From Sphingomonas sp. (GTDB taxonomy: Bacteria; Pseudomonadota; Alphaproteobacteria; Sphingomonadales; Sphingomonadaceae), in contig NZ_JBAZTU010000008.1 in the NCBI RefSeq assembly GCF_041661825.1, positions 58,584 to 122,583 on the forward strand: a stretch of 64,000 bases of DNA. Reading direction: 5' to 3'. Made by a program: the position numbers and the translations under genes. The notes below the pieces were generated by a model, which saw only the letters and a list, made by a program, of their open reading frames with translations, ran no database searches and was not told where the DNA came from. Positions 6,763 to 23,484 of the stretch are shown piece after piece (position 1 is the stretch's first letter; each line of letters starts with the position of its first letter).

Positions 6763-7658
6763 CCGATCCGGTCGCCTCGTCGGCCATCGACAGCATCAGC
6801 ATCACGCTCTCCGACGACGCGACCCCGATGGTCGCGAGCGTCGTGCTGCTCGATCCGATCGCCGCCCCCGCCGATGCCGCCGCGATGCTGCCCGAGACGG
6901 CCGATATCGCGCTCTATGTCGCGCCGGCCGAGGGCCTGCCCGCCATGTCCGGCCCGCCAGCGTTCGAGGTAAAGGCGGTGTCGATCGGCGGGATCATGTT
7001 CGAGCTTGGCGACGGCTATACCTTGACGATCGATGAGGCGACCTCGTCGATCTACGTCACCAATGCCGAAACCGGGGAGTCGCTGCTGGTCTGGGGTGCG
7101 GCGGAGATCGCGCTCGACGGCGCCGATGCCGCGCGCTTCTGGGGCACGACCAGCGTCGAGCTGGGCAACGGCACGAAGATCACGATGGAGACCGCGGTCG
7201 ATGCCGCGATCGCCGACCTGTACCGCCTCGACAAGCTGACCGTCACTCGCGACGACCGGGCGATGGTGATCACCGGCGTGTCGGAGGAGACCCTGGGCGA
7301 CCTGACGGTCGAGCAGAGCTTCGACGGCGAAGCGATCGACGCGGCGACGCGCGACGGGCTGACCATCGTCACCGACATCACCGGCCGGTGGAGCGACGAA
7401 TATGGCAATGCCGTCACGCAGGCCGTGTTGAAGCAAACCGCGCCCGGCCGCCGCTACGGCCCGGGCCGGACCACGCTCAGCTTGGGCGAGATCTCCAAAG
7501 CGATCTCGAGCTTCGTTACCTATAACCAGATCGACTCGCTGATGCTGACGATCGGCCGCAACCGGGTCGACGAGCCGGGAGGGCGCGACCGGAGCGCCGA
7601 AGTCCACCGCGCCATCGCGCTTTATGCCGGGGGGAACGCCCGTCTCGATGGCGCCTGA
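6759..7658 (+). CDS. DUF1521/MIIA-like paralog with a degenerate cleavage motif (GAAE in place of GDPH)
   Basis: LGDGYTLTIDEATSSIYVTNAETGESLLVWGAAEIALDGADAARFWGTTSVELGNGTKITMET aligns without gaps to LGDGYRLEIDERNSEMTIFNETTGESTRIWGDPHVDVNGNHQFDFYGTTTFELANGTKITINT of the gene at 1..670. Confidence 0.7.
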   Translation: MTDPVASSAIDSISITLSDDATPMVASVVLLDPIAAPADAAAMLPETADIALYVAPAEGLPAMSGPPAFEVKAVSIGGIMFELGDGYTLTIDEATSSIYVTNAETGESLLVWGAAEIALDGADAARFWGTTSVELGNGTKITMETAVDAAIADLYRLDKLTVTRDDRAMVITGVSEETLGDLTVEQSFDGEAIDAATRDGLTIVTDITGRWSDEYGNAVTQAVLKQTAPGRRYGPGRTTLSLGEISKAISSFVTYNQIDSLMLTIGRNRVDEPGGRDRSAEVHRAIALYAGGNARLDGA

Positions 7659-8158
7659 ACGCCGACGCGGCCGACGCGAATCTCGCGTCGCAACAGGCGT
7701 TCGTTCAGCTGCTCGCTCCACTGCACCGCCATCGCCGGCGGCACGGCGGTGGCGGGGATCAGCAGCACGTTGATCTGCCCGGCGAGATTGCGGCCGAGCA
7801 CGGCGCCCTCGATGCGATAGGCGCCGAGCGGCAGCGAGAGCTGGACCTGCGGCTCAGCGCCGCCCTTTGTCACTTCGGCAATGGCAGCGGCGATGCGGTC
7901 GAGATGCGCGTGGAGCATCGCATCGACATCGCCTGCCGTCGCCGGCGCCTCCGCCATCGGGGCCGCGGCGAGATCGCGCGGCATGGCGAGCGCGGCGAAG
8001 ACATTGTCGTCGGCAGTCTGCTTCTTCGTCTTGCCCGCATTGCGGGTCAGCGCATCGGCAAAGGCACGCTTCTGCGCGGGCTGGGGCTCGGGCTGTGGGT
8101 TATGGGCCGGGCGGGGCGACGGCGTGTAGCTCGGCCGGGGCGGTGGGGCGGCGTTCAT
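7622..8158 (-). CDS. Probable needle-length / substrate-switch protein (SctP/HrpP/HpaP-like)
   Basis: Last gene after sctN and sctO. Pro-rich N-terminus PPPRPSYTPSPRPAHNPQPEPQP. C-terminal T3S4-like segment is QVQLSLPLGAYRIEGAVLGRNLAGQINVLLIP. Its 3' end overlaps the convergent gene 6759..7658 by 37 nt. Confidence 0.5.
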   Translation of the reverse strand: MNAAPPPRPSYTPSPRPAHNPQPEPQPAQKRAFADALTRNAGKTKKQTADDNVFAALAMPRDLAAAPMAEAPATAGDVDAMLHAHLDRIAAAIAEVTKGGAEPQVQLSLPLGAYRIEGAVLGRNLAGQINVLLIPATAVPPAMAVQWSEQLNERLLRREIRVGRVGVQAPSRRAFPPA

Positions 8159-8607
8159 GACATATGGCTCCGGACGGTCATCGGCATATCGGCTTCGAGC
8201 CGGTCCTCGACGCGGCGCTGCTCGACCCGGATCGCGGCGCGGCGATGGTCGGCGATGGTGTCGCTGCGCAGCTGGTGGCGGCCGACCGCGCGGAATGCCT
8301 CGCCATGGGCGTCGCGGGCGAGGTCGAGCCGCATATGCCGCTCGGCGACATAAGCTGCCGCGCCGGCCTCCAGCGCGATGCTATGGTCGAGCCATAGCCG
8401 CGCCTGGCTGCACGCCGGCGTGCGGGTGAAGGCCTGGCGCGCTTCGGCCCGGGCGGCGATTGCAGCGGCATGGTCGGCGCGGGCGCGGTCGAGCGCGGCG
8501 GCAGCCTCTTCGGCGGCGGCCAGCGCATCGGCGGCAGCGCGCGACAGGCGCAGCCCACGGACGCGGGCGATCTGCGCGAGCCTCGGCCCGCCCGGATCAA
8601 CGGCCAT
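8155..8607 (-). CDS. Probable stalk protein (SctO/YscO/FliJ-like), 150 aa, Ala/Arg-rich helical
   Basis: Uses the internal ATG at 8607 of ORF 8155..9150, overlapping the sctN stop by 11 nt. Sequence MAVDPGGPRLAQIARVRGLRLSRAAADALAAAEEAAAALDRARADH... looks like coiled coil. Position is immediately downstream of the ATPase. Confidence 0.5.
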   Translation of the reverse strand: MAVDPGGPRLAQIARVRGLRLSRAAADALAAAEEAAAALDRARADHAAAIAARAEARQAFTRTPACSQARLWLDHSIALEAGAAAYVAERHMRLDLARDAHGEAFRAVGRHQLRSDTIADHRRAAIRVEQRRVEDRLEADMPMTVRSHMS

Positions 8608-22001: not shown

Positions 22002-22268
22002 ATGAGCGACGATGTCGTCACGCTGACCACCCAGGCGCTGTGGCTGGTGCTGTTGCTGTCGGCGCCGCCGATCATCGCTGCGTCGGTGGTCGGGCTGCTC
22101 GTCGCGATCGTCCAGGCGGCGACTCAGCTGCAGGAACAGACGCTACAATATACGCTGAAGTTCTTCGCCATCGTGGTCAGCATCTTCGTCACCGCCAGCC
22201 TGATGGCGGGCACCCTGTTCAGCTATGCCGACGGGATCTTCTCCGGGCTGGCGGGCGTCGGGCGGTGA
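22002..22268 (+). CDS. sctS: T3SS export-gate protein (FliQ/YscS family)
   Basis: 88 aa with two TM hairpin segments. Contains LVLLLSAPPIIAASVVGLLVAIVQAATQLQEQTLQYTLKF. Confidence 0.9.
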   Translation: MSDDVVTLTTQALWLVLLLSAPPIIAASVVGLLVAIVQAATQLQEQTLQYTLKFFAIVVSIFVTASLMAGTLFSYADGIFSGLAGVGR

Positions 22269-23092
22269 TCGAGGCAGCGCCCCATAGCATCGGCGTGCCG
22301 CTGTTCGCGGCGATACCGTGGCTCGACCAGTTGCTGACCGTGGGCATCGCGTCGACGCGCTTCGCCTTCGCGTTCGTGTTCGTGCCCGTCTTCTCGCGCG
22401 AGGTGATGCCGACGACGGTGCGCAACAGCATCATCGTCACCTTCGGCCTCGTCGCGCTCGCGCTCCAGCCGCATTTCGCGCCGGCCAGCCTGAGTGCGAT
22501 GGACTGGGCGAAGATGCTGCTGAAGGAAGCCGCTGCCGGGGGCATCATCGGGCTGTTCTTCGGCACGATATTATGGGCGCTCGCCGCGGCCGGGGAGATC
22601 ATCGATACCAAGGTGGGCGCGACGATCGGCCAGCTGGTCGATCCGCTGAGCGGCACCACCACTTCGCTGACCGGCATATTGCTCGGCCGCTTCGCCGAAG
22701 TCGTGTTCGTCACCGCCGGCGGGCTGACGCTGCTCGTCGGCACGGTGATGGGCAGTTATGTGCTGTGGCCGCTCGGGCCGGGCGGGCTGCTGCTCGACAT
22801 GCGCGCGGTGCAATATTTCGAAGGCGAGTTCGGGCGGCTGTTCGCGCTCGCCTTCCTGTTCGCGGCGCCGGTGCTCACCGTGCTGTACGTGATCGACGCG
22901 GGACTGGGTTTTCTCAACCGCTTCGCGCAGCAGTTCAACGTCTTCGCCCTGTCGATGCCGATCAAGGCGGCGGCGGCGACCTTCGTCCTGATCCTGACCC
23001 TGCCGCTGCTCGCTCAGGCCGTGCTCGCCGATCTCGGCACGCGCGAGCGGATCGCGGACGGCGTGCTCCAGCGCGTGGCGCAGCCGCAATGA
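22265..23092 (+). CDS. sctT: T3SS export-gate protein (FliR/YscT family)
   Basis: GTG at 22265 in a GTGA overlap with sctS, in frame with ORF 21950..23092. Polytopic membrane protein with the expected position after sctS. Confidence 0.85.
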   Translation: MIEAAPHSIGVPLFAAIPWLDQLLTVGIASTRFAFAFVFVPVFSREVMPTTVRNSIIVTFGLVALALQPHFAPASLSAMDWAKMLLKEAAAGGIIGLFFGTILWALAAAGEIIDTKVGATIGQLVDPLSGTTTSLTGILLGRFAEVVFVTAGGLTLLVGTVMGSYVLWPLGPGGLLLDMRAVQYFEGEFGRLFALAFLFAAPVLTVLYVIDAGLGFLNRFAQQFNVFALSMPIKAAAATFVLILTLPLLAQAVLADLGTRERIADGVLQRVAQPQ

Positions 23093-23484
23093 ACGCCTTG
23101 CAGCCCCATGCGCGGCCGACGCCGGCGCTGGCCGGAGACGGCGTCACCGATGCCGAGGAACTGGCCCGGCTGGTCGAGCGGCTGCGCGAGGCGGAAGCGA
23201 AGCGCGAGGCGCATGCCCGCGACATCGTGATCGGCGAGTTCAGCGTCACCGGCGCGCGGGTACCGCTGCTCCATATCGCCGGGCTGCAGACCTTGACCCG
23301 CAACGAGTCCGCGGTGCTGCGCTTCCTCGGCTGGGGGCGCGCCAATGGCGATATCGCGACCCTGCTCAACATGACCGAGAACACGGTCCGCACCCATATG
23401 AACAACGCGATCCGCAAGCTGGAACTGGACGGGGTCCGCGAGCTCAACAGCCTCGCGGGCCTGCTGTTCATGCCGCTCGAATGA
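23089..23484 (+). CDS. Small LuxR/GerE-type HTH transcription regulator (131 aa), coupled to sctT
   Basis: ATGA overlap with sctT. C-terminal HTH is LTRNESAVLRFLGWGRANGDIATLLNMTENTVRTHMNNAIRKLELDG. No receiver domain. Confidence 0.8.
   Translation: MNALQPHARPTPALAGDGVTDAEELARLVERLREAEAKREAHARDIVIGEFSVTGARVPLLHIAGLQTLTRNESAVLRFLGWGRANGDIATLLNMTENTVRTHMNNAIRKLELDGVRELNSLAGLLFMPLE

Follow-up and report, generated by a model that had tools for sequence, protein, structure and literature searches.

A FliO-containing, non-flagellar secretion system of type III in Sphingomonas, a probable member of a distinct lineage, and its candidate cargo

The secretion locus and its gene products

We analysed a 64-kb stretch of the Sphingomonas sp. 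contig NZ_JBAZTU010000008.1 (hereafter called the window), which carries the genes of a secretion system of type III (T3SS). The cluster as delimited at positions 7622-23484 encodes an intact non-flagellar T3SS, as judged from Pfam and NCBIfam matches, and the T3SS-linked system is wider than these coordinates, spanning about 2-25255. Since spurious open reading frames (ORFs) are plentiful in this window of 68% GC, homology was required for gene calling. The apparatus genes are listed below, with protein lengths in amino acids (aa).

7622-8158, minus strand: SctP candidate (needle length, substrate switch), following sctO; jackhmmer match to the annotated needle-length determinant of Desulfovibrio vulgaris; hhalign matches to references weak
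8155-8607, minus strand: SctO candidate (stalk), placed by position; size and coiled-coil-like composition fit; start codon verified
8597-9925, minus strand: SctN ATPase; Pfam ATP-synt_ab (3.7e-81) and T3SS_ATPase_C
9922-10512, minus strand: SctL stator; Pfam FliH and T3SS_SCTL
10509-10985, minus strand: SctK-like protein of the HrpB4 type; hhalign 76% to the SctK/HrpB4 reference alignment; jackhmmer match to the HrpB4 position of Ralstonia
10982-11749, minus strand: SctJ inner-membrane ring lipoprotein; Pfam YscJ_FliF (2.6e-32); 255-aa model as in relatives
11746-12180, minus strand: SctI inner rod; weak Pfam T3SS_basalb_I and NCBIfam yscI domain matches; Needle_F matches in orthologues
12183-12491, minus strand: 102-aa needle-family protein (p102), candidate SctF, between sctD and sctI; hhalign 99.9% to the C-terminal domain of p212 (see below); dN/dS 0.09-0.11
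12488-13696, minus strand: SctD ring protein; NCBIfam type_III_yscD 3e-20, under cut-off; Pfam Y4YQ_C and Yop-YscD_cpl
13693-15525, minus strand: SctC secretin, full length; Pfam Secretin and Secretin_N; 27-29% full-length identity to HrcC and YscC
15522-17486, minus strand: SctV export gate; Pfam FHIPEP (1.8e-168)
17489-18337, minus strand: lytic transglycosylase with signal peptide, heading the minus-strand operon; Pfam SLT (9e-24)
18838-19998, plus strand: SctU switch protein; Pfam Bac_export_2 (1.5e-94); ATG with a GGGAGG ribosome-binding site
20021-20344, plus strand (ORF opens at 19958): FliO homologue with a single transmembrane segment; Pfam FliO (1.2e-14) and NCBIfam FliO_TIGR
20344-21300, plus strand: SctQ; Pfam FliMN_C; NCBIfam SpaO_YscQ under cut-off
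21297-21992, plus strand: SctR; Pfam FliP (1.8e-70)
22002-22268, plus strand: SctS; Pfam Bac_export_3
22265-23092, plus strand: SctT; Pfam Bac_export_1 (1.9e-47) in the frame of ORF 21950-23092; 275 aa in relatives
23089-23484, plus strand: stand-alone LuxR/GerE-type helix-turn-helix regulator, 131 aa; Pfam GerE (1.2e-9); follows sctT in sphingomonads

The SctC, D, J, L, N, Q, R, S, T, U, and V proteins match their Pfam families, and all but SctD exceed the curated cut-off; SctD passes through its Y4YQ_C domain alone (28.0 versus 27), while the YscD cytoplasmic-domain match stays under its cut-off. The TXSScan-style core (sctC, J, N, Q, R, S, T, U, and V) is present in one locus in nine of nine components, with Pfam matches above the curated cut-offs. 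Among the scanned window genes, the flagellum-specific components (rod, hook, FliG/FliM, and FliF-type MS ring) have no Pfam match, FliO being the exception. The minus strand reads SLT-V-C-D-102 aa-I-J-K (158 aa)-L-N-O-P and the plus strand U-FliO-Q-R-S-T. The secretin is of the full-length HrcC/YscC type and not of the split Rhc type. The starts of sctU (18838), sctJ (11749), sctI (12180), and sctO (8607) were refined using the gene models of relatives and the sequence itself.

The initial annotation had described a complete injectisome with sctC, D, F, I, J, L, N, Q, R, S, T, U, and V, and the homology matches, which are weaker for SctF and SctI, bear out both this list and its order. Of its positional candidates, SctK and SctP gain some homology, from hhalign and jackhmmer, respectively, and SctO stays positional. 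It had also ended the cluster at 23484 by taking ORF 22318-23484 for sctT. This assignment was rejected: sctT lies in another frame, and only the last 131 codons of that ORF form a gene, the LuxR/GerE regulator, in agreement with the gene models of relatives. The ratio of nonsynonymous to synonymous substitution rates (dN/dS) ranges from 0.06 to 0.33 for all 24 genes compared with the 97% and 89% relatives, and therefore none of them is a pseudogene, a possibility that the annotation had raised. As it had stated, the GC content of the cluster is like that of the flanks; a tRNA search of the window was negative, and the neighbouring genes that were scanned include no integrase. Rfam gave no match.

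The FliO homologue, in the interval between sctU and sctQ, had been overlooked. It exceeds the Pfam cut-off and that of the NCBIfam FliO_TIGR equivalog (61.7 bits versus 55.25), possesses the single N-terminal transmembrane segment typical of FliO, and has a dN/dS of 0.09. Injectisomes have long been held to lack FliO. In 2025, a paper (bioRxiv and PNAS) mentioned in passing that non-flagellar T3SS operons of Myxococcota, Caulobacterales, Sphingomonadales, Burkholderiales, and Xanthomonadales contain FliO genes; it names Luteimonas huabeiensis (locus L035 in our scan) and does not describe the systems themselves. We found no description of this T3SS family in the literature consulted beyond that remark. 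Among the non-flagellar T3SS loci sampled here, FliO matches are confined to one clade.

Phylogenetic position and distribution of the FliO clade

How is this T3SS related to the described families? We propose that it is very probably an intact member of a distinct lineage of family rank, known here from its genes and hereafter called the FliO clade. The clade is found in Sphingomonadales, in some Caulobacterales and Burkholderiales, and, in rearranged form, in Xanthomonadales.

Neighbour-joining trees with gamma- or Poisson-corrected distances were calculated from the concatenated SctV and SctN (84 taxa, 1079 columns) and from SctV, N, U, R, S, and T (62 taxa, 1992 columns). The reference clusters were Ysc, Mxi-Spa, LEE, Ralstonia Hrp2, Mycetohabitans, Burkholderia cenocepacia, Rhc-I, the second Sinorhizobium fredii system, Rhizobium etli Rhc-III, Paracoccus pKON1, and D. 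vulgaris; Hrp1 and additional Ysc loci were taken from the genome scan described below, and two flagellar systems (Escherichia coli and Vibrio lateral) served as outgroups. In both concatenations, the FliO clade is monophyletic with 100% bootstrap support, and so is its sphingomonad subclade. The single-gene trees recover the FliO clade at 81-100% in five of six genes, the exception being SctS with its 88 columns. The clade appears as the sister of B. cenocepacia plus Hrp2 at 77-90% in the concatenations, and B. cenocepacia and Hrp2 group together without it at 96-100%, so that it is not nested in Hrp2. Grouping with Rhc receives 0-2% and a basal position with the flagellar outgroup 1-8%; the clade thus falls among the non-flagellar T3SS. 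The phylogenetic check proposed with the initial annotation therefore places the cluster within no reference family.

The sequence identities agree with a rank equal to that of the known families. The concatenated identity of the window system to each of Ysc, Hrp1, Hrp2, Rhc, SPI-1, and SPI-2 is 33-40%, comparable to the values between families (Ysc-Hrp1 41%, Hrp2-Rhc 38%), and that to flagellar proteins is 31-33%. In tblastn searches against 72,556 plasmids, SctN reached at most 56% (B. cenocepacia), with 51-53% to Yersinia/Aeromonas, Ralstonia, Sinorhizobium, and Desulfovibrio, and the membrane domain of SctV showed 59-61% to B. cenocepacia and to these same four groups alike.

A sphingomonad- or xanthomonad-type host had been suggested, and the closest SctV proteins belong to Sphingomonas and Sphingosinicella. 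SctV is 86% identical to that of Sphingomonas sp. DT-204 and of S. cannabina, and two metagenome contigs reach 97% and 89%. S. guangdongensis (SctV 63%) and Sphingosinicella BN140058 possess the same genes in the same order, including FliO, GerE, and the convergently oriented DUF1521 gene along with its small partner. A scan with the SctV alignment, using one genome per GTDB species, yielded 80 loci, whose gene maps were all drawn with jackhmmer; individual loci are cited here by L numbers. The exact order of the window recurs in more than 20 sphingomonad genomes of Sphingomonas, Sphingobium, Novosphingobium, Erythrobacter, and Glacieibacterium. The Caulobacter metagenome-assembled genomes and the Burkholderiales (Pelomonas, Roseateles, Ottowia, Aquincola, and Scleromatobacter) have the same core, with FliO and U on one side and SLT-V-C-D-F-I-J-K-L-N on the other. 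The gene order, recurring across sphingomonads, Caulobacter, and Burkholderiales, is therefore a family hallmark and not an oddity of one genome. The initial annotation was thus right that the order is unusual, as it differs from all of the fetched Ysc, SPI-1, LEE, Hrp1, Hrp2, Rhc-I/III, and Desulfovibrio reference clusters and recurs identically in no well-characterised reference family; what needs correction is any notion that it is peculiar to this genome.

The Xanthomonadales (Luteimonas, Lysobacter, Dyella, and Dokdonella) have a rearranged variant. In 13 Luteimonas and Lysobacter loci (L035-L038, L040, L041, L043, L045, L046, L048, L049, L052, and L053), the secretin gene is absent between sctV and sctD and within 10 kb on either side; the Dyella and Dokdonella variants retain it. 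The secretin-less variant is reminiscent of the secretin-less T3SS* of Myxococcus. Two sphingomonad T3SS in the literature are different systems, namely the Rhc-I-like system reported on a plasmid of S. sediminicola and the Hrp2-like system of Sphingomonas sp. NCPPB 2930.

Missing components, needle paralogues and a candidate regulon

Which parts of a canonical injectisome does the cluster lack? As seeds for iterative searches, we used YopN, MxiC, SepL, D. vulgaris SctW, and TyeA; LcrV and EspA; YopB/D, EspB/D, D. vulgaris SctB/E, and NopX; and LcrH, IpgC, CesT, HrpB1, YscW, YscX/Y, Y4yS, and NolB. These searches found no gatekeeper, tip, translocon, tetratricopeptide-repeat (class-II) or CesT chaperone, HrpB1, YscW, YscX/Y, Y4yS, or NolB across the 64-kb window, nor in some 60 loci of the clade, while the same searches were positive in the control loci (Yersinia, Aeromonas, Bordetella, and Desulfovibrio for the Ysc-type components). 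The lack of a known gatekeeper, tip, and translocon thus characterises the clade as a whole, at least as far as 10 kb from sctV, and extends what the initial annotation had noticed for the window. It is less exceptional than it had seemed, since SctW was also unmatched in the Ralstonia, Mycetohabitans, and rhizobial reference loci.

Downstream of the regulator gene lie two further genes.

23641-24279, plus strand: p212, 212 aa; a helical N-terminal extension of about 127 aa followed by a complete needle-family domain; weak Pfam needle_F match
24356-25255, plus strand: DUF6683 protein, Sec-exported; Pfam DUF6683; Sec signal and hydrophobic C-terminal tail

The needle-like character that had been given to the 212-aa protein is supported by its homology to p102, which aligns with the C-terminal 85 residues of p212 (hhalign 99.9%, E 5e-34); both proteins are also weakly related to the SctI family and to the reference needles by hhalign. 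Hence the gene products include a candidate needle subunit, a rod protein, and another protein with a needle domain. The needle paralogues are the most conserved genes of the cluster; p212 has a dN/dS of 0.067 and retains 95.7% aa identity where SctV has 89.6%. The AlphaFold2 model of p102 is a low-confidence helix-turn-helix with a predicted local distance difference test score (pLDDT) of 57, and its top Foldseek matches are MxiH, MxiI, and PrgI, with E values above 5, which are not significant and at most suggestive. That of p212 is all-helical with a pLDDT of 68, and neither Foldseek against the PDB nor a profile search against the PDB sequences gave anything meaningful for it. Likewise, the family profiles of SctO and p102 gave only chance matches against the PDB sequences, and when the SctO and SctP families were compared with small reference alignments by hhalign, neither comparison was significant. 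The protein p212 is a candidate for a tip, a filament, or a novel translocator. The DUF6683 protein is found with it in 29 loci as a near-constant partner. The N-termini of p157 (listed below), p102, and p212, encoded at 6289, 12491, and 23641, share the motif NP(I/V) within MINPIST, MTNPINS, and SLINPVSL; this could be chance or a common secretion or chaperone signal.

A 17-bp palindrome, CTAARCGAWTCGTYKAG, occurs at six sites of the window (745, 767, 4075, 6207, 23502, and 23524).

745-761 and 767-783: tandem box pair in a 22-bp register, between a DUF1521 gene and the lipase gene
4075-4091: box in the divergent intergenic region of the pentapeptide-repeat and LysM genes
6207-6223: box upstream of the p157-DUF1521 genes
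23502-23518 and 23524-23540: tandem box pair in a 22-bp register, upstream of p212
18338-18837: divergent control region of the SLT gene and sctU, with GATGCCCCAC at 18390, TTTCAAGTCA at 18462, GGAACTTT at 18548, and GCCCCACG...CCTGCTCGG at 18734-18767

With up to three mismatches allowed, the box has 12 matches on the two strands, versus 1.0 expected by chance, and no other site in the window. Each of the six sites is 36-100 nt away from the start of a T3SS-adjacent non-structural gene, and at 6207 and 23524 the likeness runs about 15 nt beyond the box, as GAGCGCGCGAG(A)GGCC. The box recurs in 17 sphingomonad loci, where it precedes p212, p157-DUF1521, the LysM gene, DUF6683, and a lipase gene, and is absent from the other 78 loci; lineage-specific variants occupy the same relative position upstream of the p212 orthologues.

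The control region between the SLT gene and sctU was examined in an alignment of 12 orthologous intergenic regions, which revealed blocks conserved in 8-10 genomes: GATGCCCCAC, TTTCAAGTCA, GGAACTTT, GTTGACC, and CGCCCCACGG...CCTGCTCGGGCTGACGA. The core of the box, CGAWTCG, occurs twice in this region (18508 and 18677). The motif GCCCCAC-N(12-18)-CCTGCT also has two copies there, on one strand, and is found nowhere else in the window; it was rejected as a bipartite promoter, since the spacing is variable (9-18 nt) and the two copies share a strand. A sigma-70 scan of the control region found nothing. The cluster contains no plant-inducible promoter (PIP) box, and an hrp box was not detected anywhere in the window.

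The genes on the other side of the apparatus are as follows.

2-745, minus strand: DUF1521 (NopE-like) protein, cut by the window edge; Pfam E 6e-48; canonical autocleavage motif WGDPHV (GD'PH) kept; boxes just upstream
843-1778, plus strand: Tle6-like class-3 lipase, 311 aa; Pfam Lipase_3; without Sec signal; candidate secreted effector
1828-2751, plus strand: ankyrin-repeat lipoprotein directly after the lipase; Pfam Ank_2; lipobox N-terminus; Tli-like candidate immunity protein
2748-4028, minus strand: pentapeptide-repeat protein; Pfam Pentapeptide; Sec-signal-like N-terminus; homologues beside the T3SS in L001, L004, and L010
4133-5458, plus strand: peptidoglycan hydrolase with two LysM, an NlpC/P60, and a lysozyme domain (Pfam); without Sec signal; candidate secreted substrate
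5455-5775, plus strand: p106, a 106-aa Sec-exported, immunity-like protein with signal peptide; 4-nt overlap with the hydrolase gene, translationally coupled
5782-6171, minus strand: 129-aa Sec-signal protein, divergent from p157; present in L002-L009, L097, and L098; dN/dS 0.07-0.18; no Pfam match
6289-6762, plus strand: p157, a 157-aa acidic protein (pI 5.4) in an operon with DUF1521 and conserved with it in 19 loci; dN/dS 0.11-0.22
6759-7658, plus strand: DUF1521 (NopE-like) protein, convergent with the T3SS operon; Pfam E 1.6e-30; degenerate motif WGAAEI

The DUF1521 protein at the window edge is a candidate secreted substrate. The second DUF1521 gene occupies the same position in L001, L002, L097, and L098; its motif is WGAAEI in this subclade and GDPH in the orthologues of Sphingobium and other sphingomonads. 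Its partner p157 is either a substrate or a chaperone.

The only relative of the lipase among the PDB sequences is the T6SS (type VI secretion system) effector Tle of Enterobacter cloacae (7ubz_B/9cys; E 1.9e-19), and the GHSLGGGLAS nucleophile elbow is conserved. Tle6 lipases are described as "invariably encoded with ankyrin-repeat immunity proteins", which are periplasmic lipoproteins, and at the sequence level this Tle6-Tli architecture, a GxSxG lipase followed by an ankyrin-repeat periplasmic lipoprotein, is present at 843-2751. The non-repeat ends of the ankyrin protein had no specific sequence match to Tli. The lipase-ankyrin pair stands beside the T3SS in L018, L019, and L060, preceded by the box in L019, and the lipase alone is found at the edge of L001. 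The LysM hydrolase recurs beside the T3SS in many loci and is preceded by the box in L014; two loci (L009 and L031) have the hydrolase-p106 pair, and in L002, L005, L006, and L008 p106 lies at the edge of the locus. In L010, it is the DUF6683 gene that the box precedes. The hydrolase and p106 could form a second effector/immunity-like module, or else an assembly hydrolase with its inhibitor. Judged by domain content and gene arrangement, the putative regulon holds two modules with the anatomy of antibacterial effector/immunity pairs, and the box-preceded genes likely encode secreted cargo. The 17-bp box is a ready tool for the genome-wide prediction of the regulon and the substrates.

The working of the system may be pictured as follows.

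Assembly: The basal body would consist of SctRSTUV, SctD/J, and the full-length secretin, with FliO acting as a chaperone for SctR/SctT assembly, as for FliP/FliR in flagella. SctK, Q, L, N, and O would form the sorting platform and the ATPase, and SctI and the 102-aa protein would build the rod and the needle, with the length set by SctP. The p212 protein may assemble at or on the needle, as a tip, a filament, or a membrane-contacting piece.

Regulation: The LuxR-type regulator encoded after sctT would bind the box and switch on p212, the DUF1521 proteins, the Tle6-like lipase, and the LysM-NlpC/P60-lysozyme protein.

The rest of the window encodes sphingomonad-type metabolism, with a TonB receptor, Trp-halogenase-like genes, glycosidases, and LacI and IclR regulators. 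Four tryptophan-halogenase-family genes (36048-39061, 58315-60117, and 61571-63232) lie among TonB-receptor, glycosidase, and LacI genes; such loci are typical of sphingomonad and xanthomonad carbohydrate uptake and are unrelated to the T3SS. The stretch 48000-51100 has a lower GC content (0.56 versus about 0.67) and is possibly a foreign insertion; its ORFs 48961-49941, 49938-50558, and 50545-51048 have no Pfam match, and 48559-48852 encodes a small "beta-flower" protein.

Mode of action and comparison with known systems

Several points weigh against an intact T3SS of a distinct lineage with its own regulon. The SctF, SctI, SctK, and SctP assignments come from weak or indirect homology, and SctO, with no profile support, was placed by its position. 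Binding of the box by the GerE protein is inferred from their co-occurrence. It is also conceivable that translocon, gatekeeper, or chaperone genes are located in another part of the genome or have diverged beyond the reach of the searches. Neighbour joining is a simple method, and the trees were built without Chlamydiales and Myxococcales references. Support for a sister relation to Hrp2 plus B. cenocepacia drops to 6-25% in the single-gene trees, and a 184-taxon SctV tree no longer shows it. Finally, the assembly and secretion activity of this T3SS are read from its gene content. In the 184-taxon tree, which includes 147 representatives at 50% identity, the FliO clade grows to about 23 clusters, nearly all of metagenome proteins, and is placed elsewhere among the non-flagellar T3SS. 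We accordingly dropped a firm sister relation to Hrp2, a signal confined to the concatenations.

T3SS biology has been built on seven or eight families, nearly all from pathogens and symbionts of animals and plants. The FliO lineage, with a divergence equal to that among these families, is common in free-living bacteria of soil and water, and it keeps FliO, long seen as the clearest flagellum-only component of the export apparatus. Its cultured, non-pathogenic carriers make it possible to test the role of FliO outside flagella, delivery without a known translocon, and the use of injectisomes against bacteria; among the cultured carriers are S. cannabina, S. xinjiangensis DSM 26736, and Sphingosinicella BN140058. 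Because FliO is kept, the usual gatekeeper and pore proteins are missing, and toxin/immunity-like pairs are co-regulated with it, this T3SS may work unlike the textbook injectors of host cells.

What, then, could its target be? One tentative answer, possible rather than probable, is that it is an interbacterial weapon or a prey-lysis machine, which delivers the Tle6-like phospholipase and the peptidoglycan hydrolase into the periplasm of neighbours, with the ankyrin lipoprotein and p106 conferring self-immunity and p212 replacing the eukaryote-type translocon as a new tip that breaches the bacterial outer membrane. The sole PDB relative of the lipase is an antibacterial effector, its ankyrin neighbour matches the described Tle6 pairs, and this pair recurs at the T3SS of three other loci; similarly, the hydrolase, without a Sec signal, is coupled to a small exported protein, and two loci keep the pair. 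The absence of a recognised translocon and gatekeeper fits this answer as well, as do the free-living carriers from soil and water (Lysobacter and Luteimonas included), the predatory hosts, and the FliO-bearing Myxococcus T3SS*, which serves prey lysis without secretin, needle, or translocon. On the other hand, we know of no secretin- and needle-bearing injectisome that targets bacteria. The DUF1521 proteins NopE1/E2 are plant-cell effectors in Bradyrhizobium, and plant pathogens too have T3SS-secreted lytic transglycosylases, both of which count against a bacterial target. The ankyrin protein lacks a specific Tli match, and the pairs could leave the cell by another system, sharing just the regulator. 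If true, no earlier family of injectisome-type T3SS would have been devoted to antagonism between bacteria, and the clade would form an evolutionary bridge to the T3SS* of Myxococcus.

We find it doubtful that the apparatus is secretion-only or partly decayed, releasing a small number of proteins into the medium or onto the cell surface, for instance for adhesion or biofilm formation, without contact-dependent delivery. Such a role would account for the lack of translocon, tip, and gatekeeper in the window and in about 60 loci, and for the 13 secretin-less Luteimonas and Lysobacter loci, which resemble a Myxococcus T3SS* working without needle and secretin. However, all of the genes are intact and under purifying selection, with the needle paralogues the most conserved, and the sphingomonads keep the full secretin, SctP, and two needle-family proteins, which argues for an extracellular appendage. 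Moreover, there would be no sense in immunity-like partners unless the cargo arrived in a periplasm.

The least likely explanation is a divergent Hrp2 subgroup that uses a pilus to inject plant or fungal cells with effectors and has its translocon encoded elsewhere: the concatenated trees, the HrpB4 and PrhJ positions matched in the Ralstonia hrp region, the sctU-first operon with an SLT gene, the NopE-like proteins, which point to plants, and the SctW-free Hrp2 reference loci favour it, whereas the clade lies outside the B. cenocepacia plus Hrp2 group, is no closer to Ralstonia (39%) than to Yersinia (40%), loses the sister relation in the other trees, contains FliO, and lacks the hrcU-hrcV pairing, an hrcT after hrcN, HrpB1, an AraC-type HrpB/HrpX, and a PIP box in the cluster.

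We now compare the proposed family-rank lineage with the known systems. The Hrp2 systems of Ralstonia solanacearum, Xanthomonas, Mycetohabitans, and B. cenocepacia are the nearest group in the concatenated trees (77-90%). They share with it a HrpB4-like SctK, a LuxR regulator like PrhJ (the GerE regulator also matches, by jackhmmer, the ORF at the PrhJ position), the SLT gene, the sctU-first operon, the full-length secretin, and the absence of a canonical SctW from the cluster. The window system is not nested in them (38-39% concatenated identity) and has FliO; its order differs from that of the operons hrcU-hrcV-hpaP-hrcQRS-...-hrpD5 and hrpB1-B2-hrcJ-B4-hrcL-hrcN-B7-hrcT. It also lacks HrpB1, the AraC-type activator, and the PIP/hrpII box, and has two needle paralogues instead of the HrpY/HrpE pilin.

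With Ysc, the window shares collinearity, C-D-F-I-J-K-L-N-O-P corresponding to the Yersinia virB operon (yscC-D-...-F-...-I-J-K-L) and yscN-O-P, and a needle-sized SctF candidate with a PSD turn motif. In contrast to Ysc, sctV heads the operon, Q-R-S-T lie with sctU and FliO on the opposite strand, and YopN/TyeA, LcrV, YopB/D, LcrH, YscX/Y, and YscW are missing; the identity is about 40%, and the system is not nested in Ysc. The Rhc systems resemble it in the DUF1521 (NopE family) genes beside the apparatus and in the Y4YQ_C domain of SctD. They differ in their split, Tad-type secretin (RhcC1/RhcC2), where the window has a full-length one; in NopX, NolB, and Y4yS, which it lacks; in their single J-K-L-N-O-Q-R-S-T-U operon, which it does not match; and in the tts box, to which the window box does not correspond, and the two group at 0-2% bootstrap. 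Regarding Hrp1, the HrpL-type hrp box GGAACC-N15-17-CCACNNA is absent from the window, and the order (hrpJ-hrcV-hrpQ-hrcN) in the Pseudomonas loci L065-L080 is different. The clade does not group with FlhA, FliI, or FliPQR of the flagellar T3SS.

Compared with Tle6-Tli of E. cloacae (PDB 7UBZ/9CYS), the window pair is tied to a T3SS and to the box instead of vgrG/T6SS genes, the N-terminal region of its lipase measures about 70 aa versus about 170 aa in Tle, and its ankyrin protein has no specific similarity to Tli; the lipase is a sequence homologue with a conserved nucleophile elbow, followed by an ankyrin lipoprotein. The "needleless" T3SS* of Myxococcus xanthus has neither secretin nor needle, whereas the sphingomonad system has the genes for both. 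Like the window system, it lacks a translocon; it is used against bacteria and, besides the FliO clade, is the only other non-flagellar T3SS reported to possess FliO.

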